From an uncultured Bacilli bacterium (GTDB taxonomy: Bacteria; Bacillota_I; Bacilli_A; RF39; UBA660): a stretch of DNA of 63,893 nucleotides. Under the pieces are notes generated by a model. That model saw nothing but the letters and a program-made list of their open reading frames with translations, had not been told where the DNA came from and searched no databases. Both the position numbers and the translations under genes were made by a program. Each line of letters opens with the position of its first letter. The stretch's first letter is position 1. Shown one piece after another: positions 8,113 through 63,893 of the stretch. Location: positions 1-63,893 of the forward strand of contig CAKOLW010000005.1 of the NCBI GenBank assembly GCA_934096405.1, written 5' to 3'.

Positions 8113-9213
8113 TTATTTTGCATATTTTTTTAATTTTCCAACTAATGGTATGATGATTGTTATTGATAAGTATGCTAAACTAATAGGTAATATTAAGTAT
8201 GCATATTTTATTTTTAATTTAGTTAAATATGTCTCATATGGTAAAGTCATGATAGTTATAAATACAAAGGATAGAATAAGTAATATAAATAATATTTTTT
8301 TAACTTTTTTATTTTTGAATAAATGATTAACTAAATATTTAATAAATAATAAGCTATAGCCACACGCATAAGACATGAATAAAACGAGTACTAAGATATT
8401 TAGATTTTCTAAGTTATCTAAGAAACTGAATACATTCATAGTTTTTAGTACTGCGTATGAAGGGTAGTTATAAAGTGAAGCAATGTTATATCCTAACACT
8501 CCTAAGATAACTATAGAGATGATACTACTTGATATAAAAGATATTATGTAAGATAGTGTTAGTTTTTTTGTTAACTTTGTATTATCTACTATATTATTTT
8601 TAGGTATTAATAAAAGTAAAAATAATGGAGACATGTAAACTAATATATATGTTATAGAAGATTTACTAAGTATATTAAAAGTATTGTTTAGTAATGGTTT
8701 AAAGTTACTTAGATCTATATCTTGAGTAAGTGTAAAAGCATTTGTAAGATACATTATAAGTCCTAGTGCTAGAGAAATAACAGCTATTCTAGAGGATGTT
8801 CCTACATCAAAACATGAAAAATATATTATTTGAGTTACTAGAATAATTGGTATTACATAGTCAGGACTTTCTGTTAAAAATTCACTTGATATAAATGTAC
8901 TTATTCTAAAAAATATTATACTTAGAAATGCAAATGTTAAAATTAAAATTAATATATTAAGTAGTTTAGCTAGTGGTTTAGGAAAAGTATAGTCTATTTT
9001 TTCAAATAAATTCTTGTCTGGTAAATAGTTAAATAATTTAAAGAAAATAAATAATAATATAAATCCTAGTATAAAACTTATTCCTAAACTAATAATTAAA
9101 CTTGTTTTTGTTTCAGTGATTAGATAAGGTATTAATATACCTAGTAATGTGGAATTTATTAATAAAATAAACATTATAGAGAAGGTAATACTATTTAACT
9201 TATATTTATTCAT
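8113..9213 (-). CDS. Spore germination protein, GerAB/GerKB-type permease subunit
   Basis: 366 aa with about 10 TMs. It is the last gene of an A-C-B germinant receptor operon. Confidence 0.85.
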   Translation of the reverse strand: MNKYKLNSITFSIMFILLINSTLLGILIPYLITETKTSLIISLGISFILGFILLFIFFKLFNYLPDKNLFEKIDYTFPKPLAKLLNILILILTFAFLSIIFFRISTFISSEFLTESPDYVIPIILVTQIIYFSCFDVGTSSRIAVISLALGLIMYLTNAFTLTQDIDLSNFKPLLNNTFNILSKSSITYILVYMSPLFLLLLIPKNNIVDNTKLTKKLTLSYIISFISSSIISIVILGVLGYNIASLYNYPSYAVLKTMNVFSFLDNLENLNILVLVLFMSYACGYSLLFIKYLVNHLFKNKKVKKILFILLILSFVFITIMTLPYETYLTKLKIKYAYLILPISLAYLSITIIIPLVGKLKKYAK

Positions 9214-21325: not shown

Positions 21326-22273
21326 ATGAATAATATAACTATTATAGGCGGTGGAGTTTTAGGTAGTCAAATAGCTTTTCAAAGTGCATACTCTGGAAAG
21401 AAAGTTACTATTTGGTTAAGAAGTAAAGAAAGTATAGATAGAACTACACCTAAATTAGAACATATTAAATCTTGTTATATAGAAGCTATTGAAGAAATGG
21501 ATAAATCTATAAATAATTGGTGTAATGGTATAAGTGATGTAGATAATTTTAATAAAGAAGAATGTTTAAAGAAAGTAGAAGATGCTTTTGTTAATATTAG
21601 AATAGAATTAGATATGAAAGAAGCTTTAAAAGATGCTGATTTAGTTATAGAATCTATGACAGAAGATATTAATACTAAGAAAGATTTATTTATTAAAATG
21701 AGTAAGTTATTAGACGAGAAGACTATTTTAGTTACTAATTCTTCTACTATATTGCCAAGTAAATTAAGAAACTATACTGGAAGAAGTGATAAGTTTTTAA
21801 GTTTACATTTTGCGAATACTATTTGGAAAAATAATATAGTGGAAGTTATGAAACATGATAAAACTAGTGATGATAGTTTTAATAAAGTAATAGAATTTTC
21901 TAAGGAAATTAGAATGATACCGCTTCCTTTACTTAAAGAGAAAAGTGGGTACTTACTTAATTCTATGTTAATTCCACTTTTGTTTTCAGCCTTGGATTTA
22001 TATGTCAATGGAGTAAGTGATTTTAAAAGTATTGATGAAGCTTGGACTAAAGGTACTGGTTCACCTAAAGGACCTTTTAGAATATTAGATACTGTTGGAC
22101 TTAAGACTGCATATGAAATAGTTAATATGTATGTTAAAACGCCTTCCTTTTTAGCACCTTATAATTTTAAGGGAATGGCTAAGTTGTTGAAACAATATAT
22201 TGATGAAGGCAAGTTAGGTGAAAGTACTGGGATTGGGTTTTATGAATATGTGAAAAGTGATAAAAATAATTGA
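21326..22273 (+). CDS. 3-hydroxyacyl-CoA dehydrogenase family NAD-binding protein
   Basis: Rossmann motif ITIIGGGVLGSQIA, conserved HFANTIW and GPFRILDTVGL segments. Confidence 0.8.
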   Translation: MNNITIIGGGVLGSQIAFQSAYSGKKVTIWLRSKESIDRTTPKLEHIKSCYIEAIEEMDKSINNWCNGISDVDNFNKEECLKKVEDAFVNIRIELDMKEALKDADLVIESMTEDINTKKDLFIKMSKLLDEKTILVTNSSTILPSKLRNYTGRSDKFLSLHFANTIWKNNIVEVMKHDKTSDDSFNKVIEFSKEIRMIPLPLLKEKSGYLLNSMLIPLLFSALDLYVNGVSDFKSIDEAWTKGTGSPKGPFRILDTVGLKTAYEIVNMYVKTPSFLAPYNFKGMAKLLKQYIDEGKLGESTGIGFYEYVKSDKNN

Positions 22274-22288
22274 AGTTGTTTGAATAAT

Positions 22289-22470
22289 TTGATAAAATTG
22301 ATACATAAGATATGAAGGAGTAATTGAACTATGAGAGAAATAATTTTCTTCGAATTAGGTACCAAACTTGGTACGAATTTCGGGGGGGGTTAAAAATAAT
22401 GCCTCTCATAGTTTTTTCGTTATATTAAATTCATAGGCATCAGTCTATGAGTTTTTTAGTGCTCTAAAAA
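22289..22470 (+). promoter_or_regulatory. Conserved leader element, copy 1 (SD + sORF ending in G8 + two terminator-like hairpins)
   Basis: Aligns by eye over ~150 nt with 61758..61975. G8 at 22382..22389. Long-range pairing of ctatgagag (22329..22337) with ctctcatag (22403..22411), then T6. Second hairpin tcatag/ctatga (22431..22450), then T6. Confidence 0.7.
22331..22393 (+). CDS. Candidate leader sORF (20 aa, MREIIFFELGTKLGTNFGGG)
   Basis: AAGGAG SD at 22315..22320, 10 nt before the ATG. Conserved counterpart at 61833..61898. Translation is unproven. Confidence 0.4.
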   Translation: MREIIFFELGTKLGTNFGGG

Positions 22471-22483
22471 ATGGAGGCAAAAG

Positions 22484-24013
22484 ATGAAGGAAAGAAAATA
22501 TGCTTTGTTTGGAATAATTACAACAATAATTTTAATAATTGGAACTACACTAGCATACTTTAAATTTCAAGTATTTGGAAATAAAAAAGTAATAAATGTG
22601 GAATCAACTAACTTACAAATAATATTTAATAATGGAGATAGTACATTTGAAGGAAATGCTTTAGAACCAGGTAATTATGATGAAATAAAGACATTTAGTG
22701 TTAAAAACGAAACAGATACAGAGTTTAAATATAATATAATAATAAAAGATTTAATAAATACATTTGTAACAAAAGGTTATTTAGTATATAAAATAACTAA
22801 TACATCAAATAATGGAGGATACAGTATGAATGATTTTGAAGATATACCAAAATCATCAATAGCTTTAGATATAGGACTAGCATATAATATAACTATTCCA
22901 TCAGGAGTAACACAGGATTATACTATAGAGATAAAGTATTTAAATGATTCAAGTTATGACCAATCAGATGATATGGAAAAAGAAGTATCAGGTAGTATTT
23001 ATATATCAAAAGGGACAGAACCAACATTTATAACAAAAATATTAGAACAGAATAAAACAATAAGTGAAAGAACTAATTTTAAAGTAACCAATACAGAAAC
23101 AACAACAGGAACAATATATAAAACAAATAAAACAGAAGATGGAAGTGAAGTATATTATTATTCAGGTAATACAATAGATAATTGGGTTAAGTTTGGAAAG
23201 TATACAACAGATGATACTTCAAGCAAGAAATTATGGGAATCTGGAGACGATATGTACTGGAGAATAATAAGAACAAATGAAGATGGGAGTGTAAGACTAT
23301 TATATTCTGGAACGAGTCCAGATACAACAGAAGGCTATATAGGAACCTCAGTATTTAGTAATTCAACTAAAGATCCATTGTATGTAGGTTATATGTATGG
23401 AACAAGTGGATCTTTAGAAAGTAATAGAACAAATGAAAATGATAGTACAATAAAAACTGTAATTGACAAATGGTATCAAAATAATTTACTTACTGATTAT
23501 GATAAATATATAAGTAAAGATGCAATATATTGTAATGATAGAAATGCTAGTACTTACGCTTTAGAAGGAACTTATCATTTTAATACATACTCTAGAATTG
23601 AACAAGGCTCATCTACTTTAAAATGCGAAAATAAAAGTGATTCATTTAGTTATAATAATACAAGTGCAAAATTAAAATATCCTATAGCATTAGTAACTGC
23701 GGATGAATTAAATTTTGCTGGGGGATATCTTGAAATTGCAGCTGAAGGAGCTTATTTCACAGTTAATAGGAATAATCTTTCAATTACTAATACACTATTT
23801 TGGTGGACAATGAGCCCTTGGGGACTATATACTACAATGGCAGATATTTTAAGAGCAAATAATAAGGGAACTATTGGAGGAAATGGCTCATTTATTAATA
23901 CTATAGCTGTAAGACCTGTTATATCTATATCTTCATGTGCAATAGTTAAATCTGGTAATGGTACGGCTGAGGAACCATATGAAATTGATTATACTAATAG
24001 TTGCAAGGGTTAA
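22484..24013 (+). CDS. Secreted protein: SipW/TasA-type signal peptide and camelysin/TasA-like N-domain fused to the C-domain shared with 1..1149
   Basis: The N-terminus MKERKYALFGIITTIILIIGTTLAYF matches the SipW-cognate signal pattern (..GGTxAYF). The C-terminal ~330 aa are paralogous to 1..1149. SD ggagg. Confidence 0.8.
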   Translation: MKERKYALFGIITTIILIIGTTLAYFKFQVFGNKKVINVESTNLQIIFNNGDSTFEGNALEPGNYDEIKTFSVKNETDTEFKYNIIIKDLINTFVTKGYLVYKITNTSNNGGYSMNDFEDIPKSSIALDIGLAYNITIPSGVTQDYTIEIKYLNDSSYDQSDDMEKEVSGSIYISKGTEPTFITKILEQNKTISERTNFKVTNTETTTGTIYKTNKTEDGSEVYYYSGNTIDNWVKFGKYTTDDTSSKKLWESGDDMYWRIIRTNEDGSVRLLYSGTSPDTTEGYIGTSVFSNSTKDPLYVGYMYGTSGSLESNRTNENDSTIKTVIDKWYQNNLLTDYDKYISKDAIYCNDRNASTYALEGTYHFNTYSRIEQGSSTLKCENKSDSFSYNNTSAKLKYPIALVTADELNFAGGYLEIAAEGAYFTVNRNNLSITNTLFWWTMSPWGLYTTMADILRANNKGTIGGNGSFINTIAVRPVISISSCAIVKSGNGTAEEPYEIDYTNSCKG

Positions 24014-55318: not shown

Positions 55319-56260
55319 ATGAACTTCAATGAAGTTTATTTAGAATATTTAAAATTTGCCGAAAAACAGCAAAAGAAACAAGGTTTTAATAGTTTGTTAA
55401 ACAATTTTAATTCAAGAATATTACCTTATTTTAAAGATATGAGGTTAGAAGATATTACAAGAGATGATATTGTTTCTTGGGAAAGTTATATTTTATCATT
55501 GGGGTTTAGAAACAATTATAATAGAAATCTTTATTATATGCTTAGTGGTTTCTTTACTTTCTGTCATAATAGATATAATTTTGATAAGACAATAATTAGT
55601 GATGTTGGATGTTTTAAAAAGATATATGAAAAAAAGAAAGAGGATTTTTACACTTTAAAAGAATTTAATCTCTTCATTAGTAATGTTGATGATTATATGT
55701 ATAAAACCTTTTTTATCTTCTTATTTTATACTGGAGTTCGTCCAGGGGAGGCAATGGCACTCAAATTAAGCGATTTTCAAGGCGATTATATCAATATTGA
55801 TAAAACTATTGACTCACATGGAAAACGTGAAATAGGTACTCCAAAAACATTCTCTAGCATTCGTAAAATTAAAATAGATAAATTTTTGAAACGAGATTTG
55901 AAACAATTAATAAAAAATTATTATAAGGAGGGTAGTGGAGATTTATTTCTCTTCGGTGGTTTGAAACCCTTAAGTCCTACTACAATCAATAGGCATAAAT
56001 TTAGTGCTTGTAATAGATGTGGTTTAAGACCGATTACCTTACATCAATTTAGACATAGTCATGCTACTTTATTATTAGATAAAGGCATTATGATTAATGA
56101 GATAAGTAAAAGGTTAGGACATTCTAAGGTATCAACCACATTAGATATTTATACTCATACTAATTCAACACAAGAAAAAAGAGTATATAATATACTCTGT
56201 TCCTCGAGATTTAATCTCAATAGTCTGTTAAACAATTTATTAAAACTTAATAAGTTTTAA
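55319..56260 (+). CDS. int: Tyrosine site-specific integrase
   Basis: GVRPGEAMAL (Arg I), HQFRHSHATLLL (H-x-x-R), LGHSKVSTTLDIYTH (catalytic Tyr). Ends 4 nt before attR. Confidence 0.9.
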   Translation: MNFNEVYLEYLKFAEKQQKKQGFNSLLNNFNSRILPYFKDMRLEDITRDDIVSWESYILSLGFRNNYNRNLYYMLSGFFTFCHNRYNFDKTIISDVGCFKKIYEKKKEDFYTLKEFNLFISNVDDYMYKTFFIFLFYTGVRPGEAMALKLSDFQGDYINIDKTIDSHGKREIGTPKTFSSIRKIKIDKFLKRDLKQLIKNYYKEGSGDLFLFGGLKPLSPTTINRHKFSACNRCGLRPITLHQFRHSHATLLLDKGIMINEISKRLGHSKVSTTLDIYTHTNSTQEKRVYNILCSSRFNLNSLLNNLLKLNKF

Positions 56261-56263
56261 CCT

Positions 56264-56285
56264 ATTTGGAGCAGGTGATGGGAAT
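56264..56285. repeat. attR: 22-bp direct repeat overlapping the tRNA-Gly 3' end
   Basis: Identical to 48700..48721. Confidence 0.85.
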
Positions 56286-56340
56286 CGGACCCACGTTATT
56301 AGCTTGGAAGGCTAGAGTTCTACCATTAAACTACACCTGC
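56267..56340 (-). tRNA. tRNA-Gly (anticodon TCC)
   Basis: Minus-strand sequence GCAGGTG-TA-GTTT..GAAC-T-CTAGC-CTTCCAA-GCTAA-TAAC-GTGGG-TCCGATT-CCCAT-CACCTGC-T-CCA. Very similar to Bacillus tRNA-Gly(UCC). Confidence 0.9.
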
Positions 56341-56356
56341 GTAATTAACATTTATA

Positions 56357-56385
56357 ATTCTACTAAAACTTTTTGGCTTTGTCAA
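56357..56385 (-). promoter_or_regulatory. Sigma-A-type promoter of tRNA-Gly
   Basis: On the minus strand: TTGACA, 17 nt spacer, TAGAAT, ending about 17 nt before the tRNA 5' end. Confidence 0.6.
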
Positions 56386-56442
56386 TATTTTAATTGAAAA
56401 AAAGTTTAAAATATGTTAACATTTAATTAGGGTGATACGATT

Positions 56443-56949
56443 GTGAAAAAGAAGAAAATTACATTTAAAAATTATGCTTATTTGCTTTTAATATTAATAT
56501 TGGTTGTTGCTTTAACATTTTATATAAGGTCTTGGTATAATACTTATAAAGCGGAAAAATTGGAGACAAGTCCTATGGAGAATGTAGTAGAGAAGATAGA
56601 TATAAATGAGATTAGAGTGACTGTTTCTGAAATGAATGAAGTGCTTTTATATTTTGGTTATTTGAAAAATGAAAAAATACACTTTATGGAACAAAGAATA
56701 TTAAATTTTTTAAAGAAAGAAGATTTGACAAGTAAATTAATTTATGTAGATGCAACTGAGTACATGAGTAATAATGAATATAAAAATATAATTAGTCAAG
56801 CATTTCCTGATAGTGAAATAGAGCCAGTTTTACCAATGATATTATATGTAAAGAGTGGTAAAGTAATAGATAATATAAAACCTGAATATGGTTTAATACA
56901 AACTTATCAAATAAAAGATTTAATAGATAAATATGATTTAAGCAATTAA
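56443..56949 (+). CDS. Membrane-anchored protein, possibly thioredoxin-fold-like without CxxC
   Basis: N-terminal TM. The soluble domain has the size and pattern of Trx-like accessory proteins but no Cys pair. Weak recall. Confidence 0.4.
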   Translation: MKKKKITFKNYAYLLLILILVVALTFYIRSWYNTYKAEKLETSPMENVVEKIDINEIRVTVSEMNEVLLYFGYLKNEKIHFMEQRILNFLKKEDLTSKLIYVDATEYMSNNEYKNIISQAFPDSEIEPVLPMILYVKSGKVIDNIKPEYGLIQTYQIKDLIDKYDLSN

Positions 56950-56979
56950 AAAACATTTAAGTTTTATTCTTAAATGTTT

Positions 56980-58203
56980 TTATATTCTATCAAATTCGTT
57001 TTTACTTTTTAAAATTACTAGTGTTATTAATGCAACGGCTAACATACATGAACCAGCAATAATGTATTCAGCAATTCCTGTTTGAGGATTAACTATTTTT
57101 TCACCAAGAATCATTATTTGTGGACTACATTCTTGATCATCTACTAAATTATCAGCTGGATAGGAATCATTAATTGTTACTGAAGAATTACCTATAATAG
57201 TTGTACCATTTACTTTAACTTGTCTATTTGTTCTTAAAGTAATTTTATCTACTAAAGTAGAATCAACAACATCTTTTATTTTTAAATAATAAGATAATGT
57301 TTCTTTTTTGTTAGATTCGATAGTATCAGCTTTCCATGTAACTTTTCCATCTGCATAATTTGCTATTCCAGTTGTTGGTTTAACTTCAACTATATCAAAG
57401 TTATCAATTATATAACTATCAAATGATACAGTAGTTTCCATGTTATTTTTAGCTCTAGGCATTAAACTTTCTACTACAGTTGCTGCGTTAAGTGTATTAA
57501 GATTTGTACTTACAACATCAACTCTTGCTGTAGCAGTACTAAATATATTATTGAAATTAGTTTTATCAGTCATATCAATATTATAAGCATAAATTTGAAT
57601 ACCACTGCTAGTATAAGATTCAACTTTTGATTTTAATGCAGTTACATCAACTTCATTTAAAGTACCTAAATTATTTACAACTAATATTATAACTTTAGTT
57701 CCGTTTGATGAACTAAGCTCTCCAGCTGCTTTTTCTAAGCTATCAAATATTTCTCCATTATTACTACTAGAAGCTGTAGTTTTAACATTATTTAAATTAC
57801 TTTCAATTTTTGTAGTATCTAATGGATTTAAAGTTGTCTCATTATTTGTTGTTACAGCTACGCCTTGTCTTACAGCATTTCTTCCTTCCAATAAATTTGC
57901 ACTAGTTTTTAAAGAGTCAATAACATTAGCTTTAATACCTGACATTGTACTACTGTTATCAATAACGTACATAACATCAATATCTTTAGAGTTGTCAATT
58001 ACAATATCAATTGCAACTTTACCATTTGCTAAATCAGATTTTTCTGTATTAATGGTGTTTAATATATTAGCACCATCACTACTTAATACCTTTTTAGCAA
58101 AGTTTTCTTTAACTACTTTTACGCTGTTATTAGCGGCATTTAATGTGCTGACTCCTAGCAAAACACTCAATAGAAGTGTGCTTACTAATAATCCTTTTTT
58201 CAT
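56980..58203 (-). CDS. Cell-wall-anchored von Willebrand factor A domain protein with NPQTG sorting signal
   Basis: Signal peptide and MIDAS motif VIDNSSTMSG. C-terminal NPQTG, a hydrophobic stretch (IAEYIIAGSCMLAVALITLVIL) and a charged tail (KSKNEFDRI). Confidence 0.85.
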   Translation of the reverse strand: MKKGLLVSTLLLSVLLGVSTLNAANNSVKVVKENFAKKVLSSDGANILNTINTEKSDLANGKVAIDIVIDNSKDIDVMYVIDNSSTMSGIKANVIDSLKTSANLLEGRNAVRQGVAVTTNNETTLNPLDTTKIESNLNNVKTTASSSNNGEIFDSLEKAAGELSSSNGTKVIILVVNNLGTLNEVDVTALKSKVESYTSSGIQIYAYNIDMTDKTNFNNIFSTATARVDVVSTNLNTLNAATVVESLMPRAKNNMETTVSFDSYIIDNFDIVEVKPTTGIANYADGKVTWKADTIESNKKETLSYYLKIKDVVDSTLVDKITLRTNRQVKVNGTTIIGNSSVTINDSYPADNLVDDQECSPQIMILGEKIVNPQTGIAEYIIAGSCMLAVALITLVILKSKNEFDRI

Positions 58204-58324
58204 TTTTTCCTCCTTATCATAATCTAATTATATCATGTCATTTTGTAAATTTAAAGAATTTTGTTATATTTTTTCTTTATAAACGTAATTATTTATGCTA
58301 AACTTAGACTAGGAGAGAGTTGTT

Positions 58325-59911
58325 ATGAAATTAATTAGTTTAATAATAAATAATAATACTGCTATTGTAGAGATAATTAATAAACGTTTTAGTAGAGATA
58401 TTAACAATAATGTTATGAATAACAATACTCTTTTATATACTTCATATTTTATAAGAAAGAATAAAGAAGTAATTAATGAAATATTAGAAATTAAGTATAT
58501 AGAAAATTATATATATAAAGATTTTGAAAGCTTTTATGTATTAGGTAGTATAGTAAGTGGGAGTAGTGTAACTTTTGATATAGAAGAATCTCTTACTGTT
58601 AAGGCTTGTAATATATTAGTTAGTATGAAAAGACTTAAATATGTAAAATGTTATTTTATGCCTAGTGATTATGTTCATAAATTAGCAGAAAAAAATATTT
58701 CAGTTAATTTTACTAATGATTATAGTTTTACTAGTGATTTTATAAATAGTAATGGATTTAAAAATTTAAAAAGTTTATATTATAAAAAAATTATTTATTT
58801 TTATAGAGAAGAGGATGTTTATAATAATTTAGAAGATTTTTTGAGAGTAAATATTTCTTTGAAAGTTATACATTTATATTTTTATTCTACTAAATCTATA
58901 AAATATATTACTGAAGAATTAACTAAGTATAAAGAAAATGAAGTTAATATTTATATACATCTTAATGATTTTAATAAAGAAACTATTAAAAATGATGTTA
59001 ATAACTTAAGAGATATTAACAAAAAATTTAATAAAAAAGATAAAAAAATAAAGATTATATATAGTAATGATTTTTTTAATAACAATATTTTTAAAGAACT
59101 TACTTTAAATACTATTAAATTATGTTTAGTGTTAATTATGTATTTGGGATTAATATTAATTATATCTAATAAATATCATGAATATTTGGCTCTTGTAGAA
59201 CTTAGAAAATTGGAAATGTCTTTAATAGAAAATAATAGTCAAGTAAATGACAATATAGATGAAATAGATGATATACAAGAAATAGTGGAACCTGAGCCAG
59301 ATAATAATGAAGAACCAGTTGATGAAGAACCTAAGTATGTAAACTATTATGCAAATATACCGACAACTTTTGACAAACTTTTACAAATTAATAAAAATGT
59401 AGTGGGATGGGTAACTGTTAATAATACTAAGGCTAATTATCCTGTTTTACAAGGTCCTTATAATGAATTTTATAATACTCATGATATTTATGATAGAGAA
59501 GTAATTACTGGATGGATTTATATGGATTCTAGAAATAATAGTAAAGAGTTAGATCAAAATACTATAATTTATGGACATAATTTAATAAGTGGGTATATGT
59601 TTGGAGATTTAAAGAGTACTACTAATTATAGTTGGTATACTAATCCAGAAAATAAATATATTACTTTTAATACATTAGATAGAGAAATGAAATGGGAGAT
59701 TTTTTCTATATACAGAATAGATTATACTACTGATTATTTAAAGACTAATTTCTTTAATGATAAACAGTATAATGAATTTATAGATTTAATTAAAAATAGA
59801 AGTATATATAATTTTAATGTTAATGTTAATCCAACTGATAAAATATTGACTTTATCTACTTGTTCAGGTAGTTCTAGAAGATTAGTAATTCATGCAAAAT
59901 TAGTAAATTAA
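58325..59911 (+). CDS. Class B sortase with a ~250-aa N-terminal cytoplasmic extension
   Basis: C-terminal ~190 aa: VVGWVTV..TKANYPVLQG, IIYGHN, LTLSTCS, RLVIHAKL (SrtB hallmarks). Preceded by a TM (LCLVLIMYLGLILIISN), an acidic linker and a long unassigned N-domain. Confidence 0.8.
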   Translation: MKLISLIINNNTAIVEIINKRFSRDINNNVMNNNTLLYTSYFIRKNKEVINEILEIKYIENYIYKDFESFYVLGSIVSGSSVTFDIEESLTVKACNILVSMKRLKYVKCYFMPSDYVHKLAEKNISVNFTNDYSFTSDFINSNGFKNLKSLYYKKIIYFYREEDVYNNLEDFLRVNISLKVIHLYFYSTKSIKYITEELTKYKENEVNIYIHLNDFNKETIKNDVNNLRDINKKFNKKDKKIKIIYSNDFFNNNIFKELTLNTIKLCLVLIMYLGLILIISNKYHEYLALVELRKLEMSLIENNSQVNDNIDEIDDIQEIVEPEPDNNEEPVDEEPKYVNYYANIPTTFDKLLQINKNVVGWVTVNNTKANYPVLQGPYNEFYNTHDIYDREVITGWIYMDSRNNSKELDQNTIIYGHNLISGYMFGDLKSTTNYSWYTNPENKYITFNTLDREMKWEIFSIYRIDYTTDYLKTNFFNDKQYNEFIDLIKNRSIYNFNVNVNPTDKILTLSTCSGSSRRLVIHAKLVN

Positions 59912-59929
59912 AAAACTGAAGGTTAAAAT

Positions 59930-61699
59930 TTAATCTTCAGTTTTATTTATCATCCAACTATTAAATATGTCAGCATTAGCACTTTCTGGAGGTGGTGATG
60001 CTTTTTCCATTTTAACTATCATTGGAATTTTAAGTATTCTACCAAATGCAACACATGTGCCTGGTTGTAAGCTTTTTTGTTTTTCTATTATATCTGCACT
60101 CATGTTAGGTATCATTCTTGTTATGTAGTCTAGGTCTTCTGGATGTGTTATTTTAAATATTATAAAGTTGTCTGCTTGGCTTATAACATTACTATTTAAG
60201 TCTGTGGGTCTTTGAGTAATTAAGTCTAATAGTACTCCATGTTTTCTACCTTCTTTTGCAACTCTTTCAAATATATTATAACCTAGTAAGTCCACATCAT
60301 CATTTTGTATAACATATCTATGTGCTTCTTCTAAAATTATATGTAGTGGTATACTAGCTCTTGGTTCATTTACTTTACCAAATGCTAAAAAAAGTCTAGC
60401 AAATATTTTTGTTACAGTTCTTGCAAATCTATCATCTACATCTTCTAAGTTAATGTTTATAACTTGAGCTTTTTTATTATCTTTTGTAGTTACTAGATAA
60501 GCTATAAATTCTTTTATACTGTTGTATTTTTTATCAGTAAAGAAAATACTATTAGAACTATTTATTAGATTATGTAGTTTTACTTTTAAACTAATTGCTT
60601 CATCATACATGTCTGGATTTAATAAGTATCTTTCACTAAATAGGGTAAAGTTTAATGCTACTTCTAATTCTTTTAGACCATATGTTACGTTAGATGTATC
60701 TATATTCCATTTTTTATCATCTTGTATAAAACTTTCTATGTATTCAGCTATTATCGTTCTTTCTGCAAATCTTCCTTCACTGTCTATATCAAAACAATGT
60801 CTGAATACTCTTGTAAAACCTACACCTGGGATTATTGCATTTAAATTAATTTGATCTGTGTATGTATTGGCAACTATATCAAATATTTGGTCTCTTATTT
60901 TAGCACTTGTTTGATTAGTATACATTATTGAAGTAATTGCTTTAGCTAATAAGTGATTTTTGTATTCTATAACTTCTTTAGAGTTTGAAGAAAATATTTT
61001 GGCAAGTTCAATAGCACTTTCTACTATAGATATTTGGCTAAATTTAGTAGCGTCTAGTATGTTTAATATATCATCTATAGTTAATAATGATACTGGTATT
61101 TGTAGTTTTTCATTACCTTCATTGATTAATCTTTTATTTGTAGTTATTAATTTGTAGTGTAAGTTTTCGTTTATTTTGTTTAAGTCTTTGAAAGCATTAA
61201 TGTATTCTCCATATGAATCAAATATGAACATATTAGCTTTATATGGAAGAGCTTGCATGTTATATACGTTTTGTATTATTCTACATATTCCATATGTTTT
61301 ACCACTACCAGAATTACCAAATATAGCAGAGTGATTACTAAATAAGTCATTTAAGTTAACACTTACAGGATAATCTTTATATAATGGACTTACTCCTAGA
61401 GTAAAACTCATTTTGTCTCCACCTACTAATACATGTAATTCTTTTTCATTTATTATTCTAACTTTGGCATCTAAACTAGGTTTTTTTATTAAACCTCCTA
61501 CAAAGTTAGTATCATTTATTTCTCCTAAAAAATTTATTTTAACACTAGAACCATCTATGTCTTCAACTTCTCCTAGAATTCTTTTATCTTTGTCTTCAAA
61601 AATAACATGTAAGTTTAAGATATCTCCTAGATTTTTGGCATCTATGGTTAGATTTACTATTGCATAATTTTTATTTATTGCTTTAATATTGCCAAACAT
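59930..61699 (-). CDS. HerA/DUF87-type ATPase (FtsK-HerA superfamily), stand-alone
   Basis: N-terminal barrel-like region (AIVNL...LHVIFED...ILGEVEDI), Walker A GNSGSGKTYG, Walker B HIILEEAHRY, KEGRKHGVLLDLITQRPTDL. Confidence 0.8.
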   Translation of the reverse strand: MFGNIKAINKNYAIVNLTIDAKNLGDILNLHVIFEDKDKRILGEVEDIDGSSVKINFLGEINDTNFVGGLIKKPSLDAKVRIINEKELHVLVGGDKMSFTLGVSPLYKDYPVSVNLNDLFSNHSAIFGNSGSGKTYGICRIIQNVYNMQALPYKANMFIFDSYGEYINAFKDLNKINENLHYKLITTNKRLINEGNEKLQIPVSLLTIDDILNILDATKFSQISIVESAIELAKIFSSNSKEVIEYKNHLLAKAITSIMYTNQTSAKIRDQIFDIVANTYTDQINLNAIIPGVGFTRVFRHCFDIDSEGRFAERTIIAEYIESFIQDDKKWNIDTSNVTYGLKELEVALNFTLFSERYLLNPDMYDEAISLKVKLHNLINSSNSIFFTDKKYNSIKEFIAYLVTTKDNKKAQVININLEDVDDRFARTVTKIFARLFLAFGKVNEPRASIPLHIILEEAHRYVIQNDDVDLLGYNIFERVAKEGRKHGVLLDLITQRPTDLNSNVISQADNFIIFKITHPEDLDYITRMIPNMSADIIEKQKSLQPGTCVAFGRILKIPMIVKMEKASPPPESANADIFNSWMINKTED

Positions 61700-61774
61700 A
61701 ACTACACCTCTTTATTCTAAAATAATGTTACCATAAGTCTAGGAAAGTTTCAATTAATTTTTGATAAAATTAGA

Positions 61775-61803
61775 TTGAATAGTGTAGTAGATTATGATAT
61801 AAT
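61775..61803 (+). promoter_or_regulatory. Sigma-A-type promoter in front of leader copy 2
   Basis: TTGAAT, 17 nt spacer, TATAAT. About 14 nt upstream of the AAGGAG SD of the sORF. Confidence 0.6.
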
Positions 61804-61832
61804 TTTCATAGAATGTAAGGAGTAAAAGAACT

Positions 61833-61898
61833 ATGAAAGAAGTAATTCCTTTTGAAGCAAGTACCAAATTTGATACGAATTTCGGGGGGGGTTATTAG
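61833..61898 (+). CDS. Candidate leader sORF (21 aa, MKEVIPFEASTKFDTNFGGGY)
   Basis: AAGGAG at 61817..61822, 10 nt before the ATG. Same arrangement as copy 1. A +1 G change in the G8 tract would fuse it in frame to 61922..62635. Confidence 0.4.
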   Translation: MKEVIPFEASTKFDTNFGGGY

Positions 61899-61921
61899 AA
61901 AATAACTCTCATAGTTTTTTC

Positions 61922-62635
61922 GTGAAATTAAGTTCATGGGCGTTTGTCTATGAATTTTTTGCACAGCAAAAAATTCATAGATTTAAAAAAATTAAAAAAG
62001 TTATATTGGCACTGGGGGCGTGCTTTCTATGTCTGTTAAATATGAAAGCTGAATGCTCTTATAAAGAATTAAAAGAATTAAATGCGTTTGCTTCTCATGT
62101 GGAAACTAGTTATAAGTATAATGAAGAAACTGGTTTATTTGATTTAACAGTTACTAATTTAGGAGATAAAGCTTTTATTAGTGCTGGTATAAATGAATAT
62201 TATTTTCCTACAGATGGAGTGGTTACAATAAATAATTTGAATTTGGGAATGTCATATAAATATAATGTTTTTCCTTTATCGGCAGGTGATTGTGGTGGTG
62301 AACTATTAAGGGTTTTATATATTACTACTCCCTATAAGAATAATTTTTATGGTTCCTTAGCTTGTACTGGACATGAAGATTTAAGTGTTTGTAATTCTGA
62401 ATTTCTAGATTATAAGCTTAGTAAACAAACTTTTTTAAAATTGTTAGAAAAGAAGCCAAACGAAGAAGTACAAGATGATGACAAGAAAGATGAAGTAGTT
62501 AAACCTACATTTAAAGAACAAGCTATAGAGTTTATAGAAAATAATTATTTAAAAGTGTTATTACCACTTATTTCATTAATACTATCTATAAGTGTATTTA
62601 AGGTTGTGTTAAGAAAAGTAAAACATGGTATTTAG
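61922..62635 (+). CDS. Secreted, C-terminally tail-anchored Cys-containing protein (start uncertain)
   Basis: Signal-like KKIKKVILALGACFLCLLNMKA, a ~130-aa domain with 5 Cys, an acidic linker and a C-terminal TM plus basic tail. The GTG at 61922 has no SD and lies inside the leader hairpins. Confidence 0.6.
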   Translation: MKLSSWAFVYEFFAQQKIHRFKKIKKVILALGACFLCLLNMKAECSYKELKELNAFASHVETSYKYNEETGLFDLTVTNLGDKAFISAGINEYYFPTDGVVTINNLNLGMSYKYNVFPLSAGDCGGELLRVLYITTPYKNNFYGSLACTGHEDLSVCNSEFLDYKLSKQTFLKLLEKKPNEEVQDDDKKDEVVKPTFKEQAIEFIENNYLKVLLPLISLILSISVFKVVLRKVKHGI

Positions 62636-62649
62636 AAAGAGGTGTTAAA

Positions 62650-63300
62650 ATGTTGAAGAAAAAATTATTGTTTTTAATAATCATGTGTATAACTGGCATG
62701 AGCGTATTAAATGCTGATTGTGAAGAAGCTATGGAAGAAGGAAAATATTTAATATATTTTGTTGATAAAGCAATTGATACAAGCTATGATAATATACTTA
62801 ATATTTATATGCCTAAAGATGTTGTATATTTTAAAGTGAAAAATGATTTTAATAATGAAAATAAAACTTATACATCTATTGATAAAGATGATTCAAATCT
62901 TATTAAAATTAAAGCACCTACAAATTATGAAAATATTAAGTATACAATTGAGGTTTATTATGCAGATGCGTCTTGTGGAGTTGAACCAATTAATACATAT
63001 ACAGTTGAAACAGGAAAGTACAATGCTTTATCTGATATGAAAATTTGTTGGGACAAATTATATTTAGATGTTTGCGATACTAATTATGATGAAAAACAAA
63101 TAGAAAAATATAAAGATGTTAAAACAGAAGAAGAATTAACTAAAATAGTTAACAAACAATTAAAAGAGTATAATAGGGCTAATACAAAGCCAATTGATGT
63201 TGTTAAAAAATACTATTTGTATGTTTTAATTCCATTTTTGATTGTTAGTTGTTATTATATTCCTAAAATTATAATTGCTAAGAGAAAGAAGGGAGATTAA
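62650..63300 (+). CDS. Secreted, C-terminally tail-anchored Cys-containing protein
   Basis: Signal peptide MLKKKLLFLIIMCITGMSVLNA. Same overall layout as 61922..62635 (Cys-containing domain, charged linker, C-terminal TM, basic tail). SD agaggtg. Confidence 0.7.
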   Translation: MLKKKLLFLIIMCITGMSVLNADCEEAMEEGKYLIYFVDKAIDTSYDNILNIYMPKDVVYFKVKNDFNNENKTYTSIDKDDSNLIKIKAPTNYENIKYTIEVYYADASCGVEPINTYTVETGKYNALSDMKICWDKLYLDVCDTNYDEKQIEKYKDVKTEEELTKIVNKQLKEYNRANTKPIDVVKKYYLYVLIPFLIVSCYYIPKIIIAKRKKGD

Positions 63301-63893
63301 ATGAATAAGAGACTAGTTAAAATAACCTTATTGATTGCGATTTGCTTTTTTAGCAATTTTGTTGGATTAAAAGCACAAATTACTATTAAAAAATTATGTG
63401 AACAGGATGGTGGAATAACAACTAAGGGAATATTTAAATATGTTAAAACATATACTTACGCCTGTGATGATAATAATGGCAATACAACATGGTATTATGA
63501 TAAACCAGCAAATGAATGTCCAAAAGGTGAAACAATTCATAATGTGATGTATAAACCACAACATTTACTTACTACATTTATTGAAGGAAAAAATTTTGAA
63601 TTACTAGATAATTGGGATTATTATTGTTGTGAAATACCAACACATCCTCCTTGTGACAAGAATAGCTCTGAGTCTAAATATTATGATAAAAACGGACTAG
63701 AAATCGAGGGCGAAAATGCTGAAGAAGAATGGAATAATCAATGTGTTAATCCTGAACCGGATCCTATTCCAGAACCACCAAAACCTGATCCAGATGATGC
63801 TTGCTTTGATAAAGATGAAGAAGTTGGAAAAAATTGTAAAATAGATAATCCAACTAGTGATGTGGCTTGTAGTGGTGAAATAAAAGAAGATGA
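63301..63893 (+). CDS. Secreted Cys-rich protein, 5' part (runs off the right window edge)
   Basis: The ATG at 63301 abuts the previous stop. Signal peptide MNKRLVKITLLIAICFFSNFVGLKA. Many Cys and a Pro/Asp/Glu-rich segment (NPEPDPIPEPPKPDPDD). Open to the end of the window. Confidence 0.7.
   Translation, partial: MNKRLVKITLLIAICFFSNFVGLKAQITIKKLCEQDGGITTKGIFKYVKTYTYACDDNNGNTTWYYDKPANECPKGETIHNVMYKPQHLLTTFIEGKNFELLDNWDYYCCEIPTHPPCDKNSSESKYYDKNGLEIEGENAEEEWNNQCVNPEPDPIPEPPKPDPDDACFDKDEEVGKNCKIDNPTSDVACSGEIKED

Follow-up and report, generated by a model that had tools for sequence, protein, structure and literature searches.

In the literature, the pil1/pil3 system of Streptococcus gallolyticus was the only experimentally worked-out example that we found of a phase-variable leader peptide coupled to a terminator. 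GCAGA repeats lie there within a leader-peptide open reading frame (ORF), and ribosome-mediated antitermination was demonstrated genetically (PLoS Pathog, 2014; PMC3894217). With in-frame repeat numbers the pil1 peptide ends 39-49 nt before a stem-loop terminator (at least 28 nt in isolates) and expression is low; with out-of-frame repeat numbers it reaches to 4 bp before the hairpin or into it, termination is prevented and expression is high (PMC3894217). Here, we describe a leader of similar layout at positions 61817-62040 of a 63,893-nt stretch of DNA from an uncultured Bacilli bacterium (contig CAKOLW010000005.1; the whole stretch is called the window), which precedes the first gene (gene 1) of a Tad-like operon. 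We consider it somewhat probable that this leader, termed copy 2, is one copy of a portable cassette of about 150 nt that acts as a phase-variable leader-peptide attenuator, copy 2 itself being a derived form. The other cassette of the window, copy 1, precedes an unrelated gene.

In both systems a terminator (here a predicted one) separates the leader from the structural genes, a short peptide ends tens of nucleotides upstream of it and a shifted peptide extends up to or into the hairpin. The distances from stop to terminator are almost equal, and the genes controlled encode surface structures. Because of this shared layout the same mechanism is proposed here, with a homopolymer as the mutable element, and we regard the general mechanism, a poly-G leader-peptide attenuator of the pil1 type, as probable. 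Slipped-strand gain or loss of G would alter the leader reading frame. In the short frame the ribosome would stop 30-43 nt before the terminator (T2), the hairpin would form and most transcripts would end (OFF or low); in the long frame it would reach or enter the 5' arm of T2, the hairpin would be blocked and transcription would go on (ON). Both window copies have eight G (G8), which is the short frame, and are predicted to be OFF. On our best reading, the primary design is thus a leader-peptide-length switch acting on a downstream intrinsic terminator, not an ORF fusion. The system differs from pil1/pil3 in the mutable element, with 13-26 GCAGA units there and a G8 or G9 homopolymer here. 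It also differs in that the leader ORF lies inside a long helix predicted to sequester its own AUG, that the cassette occurs in many copies, at least 21 per genome, before a large paralogous family in uncultured gut Bacilli, and that the long frame of copy 2 passes the terminator and fuses to a structural gene without start signals of its own. Furthermore, pil1/pil3 was worked out experimentally, whereas the present system is known from sequence alone. We found no published description of the G-tract version or of this leader family; in our best reading the pil1-type switch is known and its G-tract version as a multicopy leader family is new.

Classical contingency loci carry a homopolymer in the 5' coding region, for example the poly-G genes of Campylobacter jejuni and pilC of Neisseria. 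Here, too, poly-G length sets the frame of a surface-protein gene, and copy 2 with nine G (G9) would formally be such a gene (267 codons, tract at codons 18-20). However, the other family members have the tract in a separate leader ORF and a structural gene with its own Shine-Dalgarno sequence (SD) and ATG, and the predicted control is transcription termination, not protein truncation. Leader-peptide attenuation is known from the trp/his type and, in Firmicutes, from the bmrCD and erm leaders; whether a terminator forms depends there on where the ribosome stands. The present leader resembles these in that ribosome position on a leader ORF would set the downstream terminator. It differs in its input: a heritable frame change would take the role that charged-tRNA supply or a ribosome stalled by an antibiotic has in those systems, and no regulatory codon run is tied to the function of the downstream gene. 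The parts of copy 2 are given below.

61775..61803, + strand: leader promoter, -35 TTGAAT, spacer of 17 nt, extended -10 TGaTATAAT; 10 of 12 consensus positions match, with the TG
61817..61822, + strand: leader SD AAGGAG, 10 nt 5' of ATG 61833, as read from the sequence
61825..61920, + strand: predicted helix H1, formed by segment B CUCUCAUAGUUUUUU (61906-61920) and the start-codon region AAAGAACUAUGA
61833..61898, + strand: leader short ORF (sORF), 21 codons in the G8 (short) frame, stop TAG 61896-98, peptide MKEVIPFEASTKFDTNFGGGY
61884..61891, + strand: G8 homopolymer at sORF codons 18-20, the proposed slipped-strand switch; G9 or G6 would give the long frame
61933..61960, + strand: predicted terminator T2, stem-loop UUCAUGGGC-GUUU-GUCUAUGAA at 61933-61954, then U6 at 61955-61960; -9.2 kcal/mol
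61937..61939, + strand: TGG at the position of the canonical terminator-arm stop TAG, the loss of which opens the long frame into gene 1 (alignments and frame table)
61947..61981, + strand: perfect 16-bp inverted repeat (TCTATGAATTTTTTGC aca GCAAAAAATTCATAGA), present in copy 2 only and overlapping the 3' arm and U-run of T2

The same anatomy recurs at copy 1 and in other genomes. A pattern made from the conserved core returned 20 copies, all within one metagenome-assembled genome (MAG) (CAKOLN01, 'uncultured Bacilli bacterium', Hadza gut; loci L022-L038). A 21st copy in this MAG (L031, minus strand around 1466) has an unrelated 5' half of the sORF, MKLNNFFHIKTIVCYGGGYY, and the same tract, segment B and T2. 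Each MAG copy consists of a promoter, AAAGGAG, an sORF MKELILFELSTKLGTNFGGGYY, CTCTCATAGTTTTTG and the T2 hairpin, and is followed, where the contig continues, by a gene with its own SD and ATG. Those downstream genes that are complete on their contigs are all intact and encode 511-608 amino acids (aa), with an N-terminal signal-anchor ending …[SL][AY][YS]F. The promoter layout of copy 2 is also that of copy 1 and of all 21 MAG copies. In an alignment of 19 leaders (4-5 sequence types), the GGAG and ATG are invariant or almost so. Copy 2 and all 19 aligned leaders have a simple sequence repeat, in this case a homopolymer, within a short ORF that has an SD and ATG of its own at the transcript's 5' end. 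The sequence of the leader peptide is poorly conserved between types and one MAG copy has a different 5' half, suggesting that length and frame, and not the peptide sequence, are what matters. Copy 1 is laid out as follows.

22270..22457, + strand: copy 1 cassette, matching copy 2 over about 150 nt
22270-22298, + strand: promoter
22315-20, + strand: SD
22331-22393, + strand: sORF
22382-22389, + strand: G8 tract
22403-22411, + strand: segment B
22427-22454, + strand: T2, plus U-run
22484-24013, + strand: copy-1 gene, 509 aa, with its own GGAGG and ATG

The SD and ATG of the copy-1 gene had been pointed out in an earlier note on this DNA, and both are present at the gene that starts at 22484. 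The family of this gene has more than 6,886 hits, which are 500-890 aa long, unannotated and from gut metagenomes. Five of the homologues were sampled for leaders. P0014 has a leader of the same type as the window; P0078, P0017 and P0024, from other species, have G-tract leaders that are diverged in sequence and share the architecture; and P0055 has no G-tract leader. In copy 1 and every other family member, copy 2 excepted, the long frame ends in or next to the terminator, and the structural gene retains an SD and ATG of its own. Scans of viral contigs for both leader types found nothing. Several side observations concern this family. Some members of the copy-1 gene family have a faint DUF6273 match, and homologues among P0013-P0132 have N-termini ending …SLAYF or …SYASF, which we take to be similar to SipW/TasA-type signal peptides. 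Contigs frequently end in or near leaders (L027, L028, L032, L041, L066). Two leaders look like decayed switches: at L054 2388-2395 the tract is interrupted (G4AG3) and T2 weakened, and from L045 6714 onward a degenerate T2 stands upstream of a RadC-like gene.

The G tract is polymorphic in the family. At the P0078 locus, sampled in 10 samples with several assemblers, the tract was read as G8 (twice), G9 (four times), G6, G4AG3, G8+TT and G9+TT; the encoded 859-aa protein was identical across samples and the flanks were nearly identical. Among the CAKOLN01 paralogues there were 18 G8 and 3 G9 tracts. L056, a close relative of copy 1 with an identical 3' half of the leader, has G9, and gene callers annotated a 32-codon sORF there. 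By our own tally, long-frame states are the minority (5 of 44 instances), which fits costly or immunogenic surface proteins that are mostly kept off. Furthermore, the two window tracts are the sole G or C runs of at least 6 in the 63.9-kb window, which has 25% GC, and in 547 kb of related AT-rich loci all 43 of the 43 G or C runs of at least 7 are leader tracts. Such confinement of G runs to leaders in genomes of 25% GC argues for maintenance of the tract and against chance.

The reading frames around the tract were described in the earlier note, and this part was borne out by the sequence: the sORF runs from ATG 61833 to TAG 61896-98 across the G8 tract, and an offset ORF of 237 codons (GTG 61922 to 62635), in the -1 frame relative to the sORF, is open back to 61874, with TGA at 61871-73. 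As it had stated, one extra G or two fewer join the two. Frame emulation gave a single ORF of 267 codons for G9 and of 266 codons for G6, with a product starting MKEVIPFEASTKFDTNFGGGLLENNSHSFFVKLSSWAFVYEFFAQQKIHRFKKIKKVILALGACFLC and a predicted junction peptide FGGGLLENNSHSFFVK; G7 and G10 at copy 2 gave only 23-24 codons. For the frame table, +0, +1 and +2 G were emulated in each leader type and positions were counted from the first paired base of T2. The short frames stop 30-43 nt 5' of T2, and one long frame stops at -5 to +9 (5 leader types). In the MAG copies the G9 frame terminates at TAG in UUCAUAGGC, in the P0078 type the G7/G10 frame at TAG in GGAUAGAA, in L057 the G8 frame at TAG in GAGAUAGGG, and in L059 the G8 frame at TAA within the loop. 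Copy 1 has its G9 stop at -4 (TAA 22426-28) and its G7/G10 stop at +4 (TAG 22434-36), relative to TTCATAGGC. The earlier note had the equivalent frame of copy 1 closed by the TAG, where copy 2 has TGG. The frame is indeed closed, but by the TAA, the TAG being the stop of the G7/G10 frame; since a 1-nt indel separates the copies, TAG and TGG are positional homologues and do not lie in the same frame.

An intrinsic terminator between the leader ORF and the structural gene is predicted at copy 2 and in every leader type, as a hairpin with U5-7 at the same place. At copy 2 the stem is retained at TGG 61937-39 by a G-U pair, and the long frame runs on through T2 and the 16-bp inverted repeat, past an ATT codon at 61991, into the signal peptide of gene 1. 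In the related strain locus L004, this inverted repeat has an inverted loop (CACAG to CTGTG) and one substituted arm base.

The tract could also be read without any heritable switching. Either RNA polymerase would slip on G8 or ribosomes would slip by -1 on G GGG GGU, so that a fixed fraction of ribosomes enters the long frame and low read-through and fusion product are made constitutively. Long homopolymers are known slippage sites, G_GGG_GGU (61885-61892) formally fits the heptamer pattern X_XXY_YYZ in the zero frame of the sORF, the shift needed is -1, and such recoding would account for purifying selection on gene 1 with a fixed G8. However, a stimulatory structure at 5-9 nt downstream is lacking (the closest helix overlaps with the heptamer, and T2 starts after 42 nt), and the length differences seen at the DNA level in the family indicate that the tract mutates heritably. 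Moreover, a shift to the -1 frame would yield only a longer leader peptide and no further product in copy 1, in the MAG copies and in the other types, where this frame closes at or within the terminator. We hold recoding of this kind to be quite improbable. Programmed -1 frameshifting in the strict sense was rejected, as the slippery heptamer is present but neither a stimulator nor a conserved trans-frame product is.

Copy 2 departs from the rest of the family in its relation to the downstream gene. The features concerned are these.

61922..62635, + strand: gene 1, drawn as the ORF from GTG 61922; first gene of the Tad-like operon, with signal peptide, Ig/FN3-like beta-sandwich and C-terminal transmembrane helix
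61991..61993, + strand: ATT codon, residue I24 in the window, aligned with the starts of homologues; no SD upstream
62650..63300, + strand: gene 2, encoding 216 aa, with an SD and ATG of its own; would rely on read-through of T2

In agreement with the earlier note, GTG 61922 has no SD and is flanked by a hairpin with T-run (61887-61910) and by the second terminator hairpin (61933-61954 plus T6), and no in-frame ATG precedes the signal peptide. The claim that gene 1 has no SD or start codon of its own was strengthened by comparison. Twelve homologues of 191-237 aa were found, and in the protein alignment all but P0001 start with MKK at ATT 61991; P0001, 94% identical, comes from a close relative of the window organism (locus L004). 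At the orthologous loci L015 and L005, the spacer from HerA to gene 1 is about 129 nt and has its own promoter, an AGGGTGG-type SD and ATG or TTG. The window and L015 are 99.9% identical over 55828-61769 (5.9 kb) and then about 69% identical or unalignable, with a sharp breakpoint at 61769/61770 (L015 5943) that falls exactly on the upstream edge of the leader cassette. An identical HerA protein adjoins both leader-bearing and leaderless alleles. The breakpoint at the cassette edge, together with the same HerA beside both kinds of allele, indicates that the cassette replaced the native promoter, SD and ATG, and it also marks the start of the operon as a hotspot for swaps.

Judging from the substitutions, gene 1 is not decaying, and it is under purifying selection in spite of its missing SD and ATG. 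In the comparison with L004, where the arrangement is the same and the tract is G8, the ratio of nonsynonymous to synonymous divergence (dN/dS), counted from ATT onward, is 0.13 at a dS of 0.19. Changes in the signal peptide are conservative only, and in the leader and intergenic region 9 of 291 positions differ (3%), against the dS of 0.19. ATG 62042 is ATA in L004 and therefore cannot be the start. In an AlphaFold model (predicted local distance difference test score, pLDDT, 75) gene 1 has a beta-sandwich core flanked by an N-terminal helix and a C-terminal transmembrane helix. Foldseek with this model returned generic Ig/FN3-like matches only, all with E above 0.01, and sequence searches of Pfam, NCBIfam and PDB with gene 1, gene 2 and the copy-1 gene gave no family. 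Since gene 1 lacks SD and ATG yet is under purifying selection, the fusion would be the most direct route to its translation.

These comparisons show how the arrangement arose. At the head of the Tad-like operon, the cassette took the place of the promoter, SD and ATG native to its first gene, and the terminator-arm TAG became TGG; by the alignments, the fusion at copy 2 is a secondary, lineage-specific, derived state that came from these two changes. With G9 or G6, the very ribosome that melts T2 would continue into gene 1 and produce it as a fusion of 267 (G9) or 266 (G6) residues. Gene 1 would depend doubly on this state, and gene 2 and those after it would need read-through only. Use of the in-frame fusion at copy 2 is plausible, and our confidence in it is below that in the general mechanism. 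The earlier note had proposed a phase-variable locus that is OFF in this sequence, switched by the fusion. Its first part was partly supported: the tract varies in the family, with G8 throughout at the window loci, and G8 is predicted to be OFF. The fusion, by contrast, does not appear to be the primary design, because the long frame of other members ends at the terminator.

The same breakpoint could instead mean that gene 1 is a recently decapitated gene, its start destroyed by the recombination that brought in the cassette and the continuity of the frame being coincidental. The break at 61769/61770 is abrupt, leaderless alleles stand beside the same HerA protein, and continuity takes an estimated 18 to 39 stop-free codons only. 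Nevertheless, a dN/dS of 0.13 over a dS of 0.19 between two lineages that both have the arrangement argues in the other direction, as do the conservative changes in the signal-peptide region and a leader region more conserved than synonymous sites. We therefore give this explanation very little credence.

Folding of the leader raised another alternative. H1 encloses an inner hairpin (61861-61876) and a pairing of G8 with UUCCUUUU in the predicted fold. The fold z-scores are -5.0 for copy 2 and -8.4 for copy 1, within a range over leader types of -2.5 to -8.4. A helix closing over the sORF AUG is predicted in all leader types, is made from different sequences and differs in register from type to type. 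For the proposed attenuator, H1 may limit leader translation to a ribosome loaded before segment B is transcribed. Alternatively, the leader could be a constitutive structured 5' untranslated region or small RNA in which the G tract is structural and its length neutral, with gene 1 translated either from GTG 61922, through reinitiation by ribosomes that have completed the sORF, or from ATT 61991, through initiation that needs no SD. The very stable H1 fold (z -5 to -8) is consistent with this, as is the pairing of G8 with UUCCUUUU or UUUUCUUC, in which the C positions are unlike between copies. Only the copy-2 lineage has GTG 61922, in place of the GTT or TTT found elsewhere, and the codon is 24 nt past the sORF stop, which would suit reinitiation. 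That all five copy-2 assemblies have G8, and that gene 1 is under purifying selection though the majority state is G8, also fits this alternative. On the other hand, L056 and the P78, L057 and L059 types lack the pairing of the tract with pyrimidines, yet the tract is retained there, and stops follow the tract at once in two frames while the third is open as far as the terminator. GTG 61922 and ATT 61991 are not preceded by an SD, whereas all other genes examined in the lineage have strong SDs, and GTG 61922 lies upstream of T2, so that transcripts must still pass T2. On balance, a structured leader with reinitiation seems to us unlikely, and we retain the attenuator as the preferred reading.

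Several points weigh against the attenuator and its fused form. The layout of short frames and one long frame was obtained in about 34% of shuffled spacers per leader type (shuffle control, not significant), and the leader types are homologous to one another and not independent. As the layout is so common in shuffled spacers, it is weak evidence alone and supportive only when combined with the rest. T2 is AT-rich and of modest strength, with -3 to -13 kcal/mol predicted across types. Transcription and translation are often uncoupled in Bacilli, which would weaken ribosome-mediated antitermination. The strain comparison proposed in the earlier note gave no length variation at the two window loci: the window and the L004, L061, L062 and L063 assemblies (five in all) agree on G8 for copy 2, as do the window and L065 for copy 1, with L066 ending inside the tract. 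The fusion would put 59 extra residues ahead of the signal peptide. Finally, only the 18 codons from TGG 61937 to ATT 61991 must be free of stops, for which we estimate a chance of about 15% at this composition.

If the attenuator is real, pil1-type logic on a plain G tract would be widespread in uncultured human-gut Bacilli, where a huge family of secreted proteins would be under its control (over 6,800 database hits; the window protein is without a Pfam family). The ON or OFF state of surface genes would then be predictable in metagenomes by sequence alone, and heterogeneity at the strain level would be explained. Copy 2 would show the switch transplanted before an unrelated operon and turned into an obligatory translational fusion, a compact natural design for stochastic gene control. 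A further step, which we put forward tentatively and hold to be short of an even chance, is that these leaders form a genome-wide contingency system, in which dozens of poly-G attenuators, each switching independently, gate one member each of the secreted-protein family and so give combinatorial surface variation, the cassette having been captured by a Tad-like integrative element as a double lock (antitermination plus obligatory fusion).

Other identities of the leader were tried and rejected. In an Rfam search no family reached its gathering score; the candidate RF03535 TEG147, a small RNA of Staphylococcus aureus, scored 24.1 and 20.3 bits for the two copies against a gathering threshold of 56.1, and the match (22322-22419, 61824-61922) covers only the closing helix AUGAGAG…UCAU and the U-run. 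Glycine-sensing attenuation was dismissed since the downstream genes are unrelated to glycine. A double-glycine bacteriocin leader was discarded because the GG is at the C-terminus of the peptide, and a type I toxin because the leader peptide is neither hydrophobic nor conserved. Origin from a miniature inverted-repeat transposable element (MITE) or insertion sequence (IS) was also set aside: a 20-nt match to an IS3-family terminal inverted repeat is about what chance would give, and H1 depends on G-U pairs and thus is not an inverted repeat at the DNA level. The match itself is between the 20-nt leader core TTGGTACGAATTTCGGGGGG and a terminal inverted repeat, TGACCTTCCCCCCGAAATTCGTACCAATTTG; the IS3-family element concerned is multicopy, encodes the transposase MKGKRFTEEQIIQVLKEG and belongs to an unrelated organism rich in GC. 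The match was seen at L040, L042, L043 and L044, for example on the minus strand of L042 around 8954-8973.

As to the genomic setting of copy 2, the window from 55319 to 63893 resembles an integrative element, with an integrase next to a tRNA (56270-56340). The same element carries a class B sortase (58325-59911) and, on the minus strand, a HerA/DUF87 ATPase (59930-61699), followed by the Tad-like operon. In L015, this operon goes on with an 885-aa protein, a DUF5411 protein, an RcpC-like protein and a T2SSE/CpaF-like ATPase.

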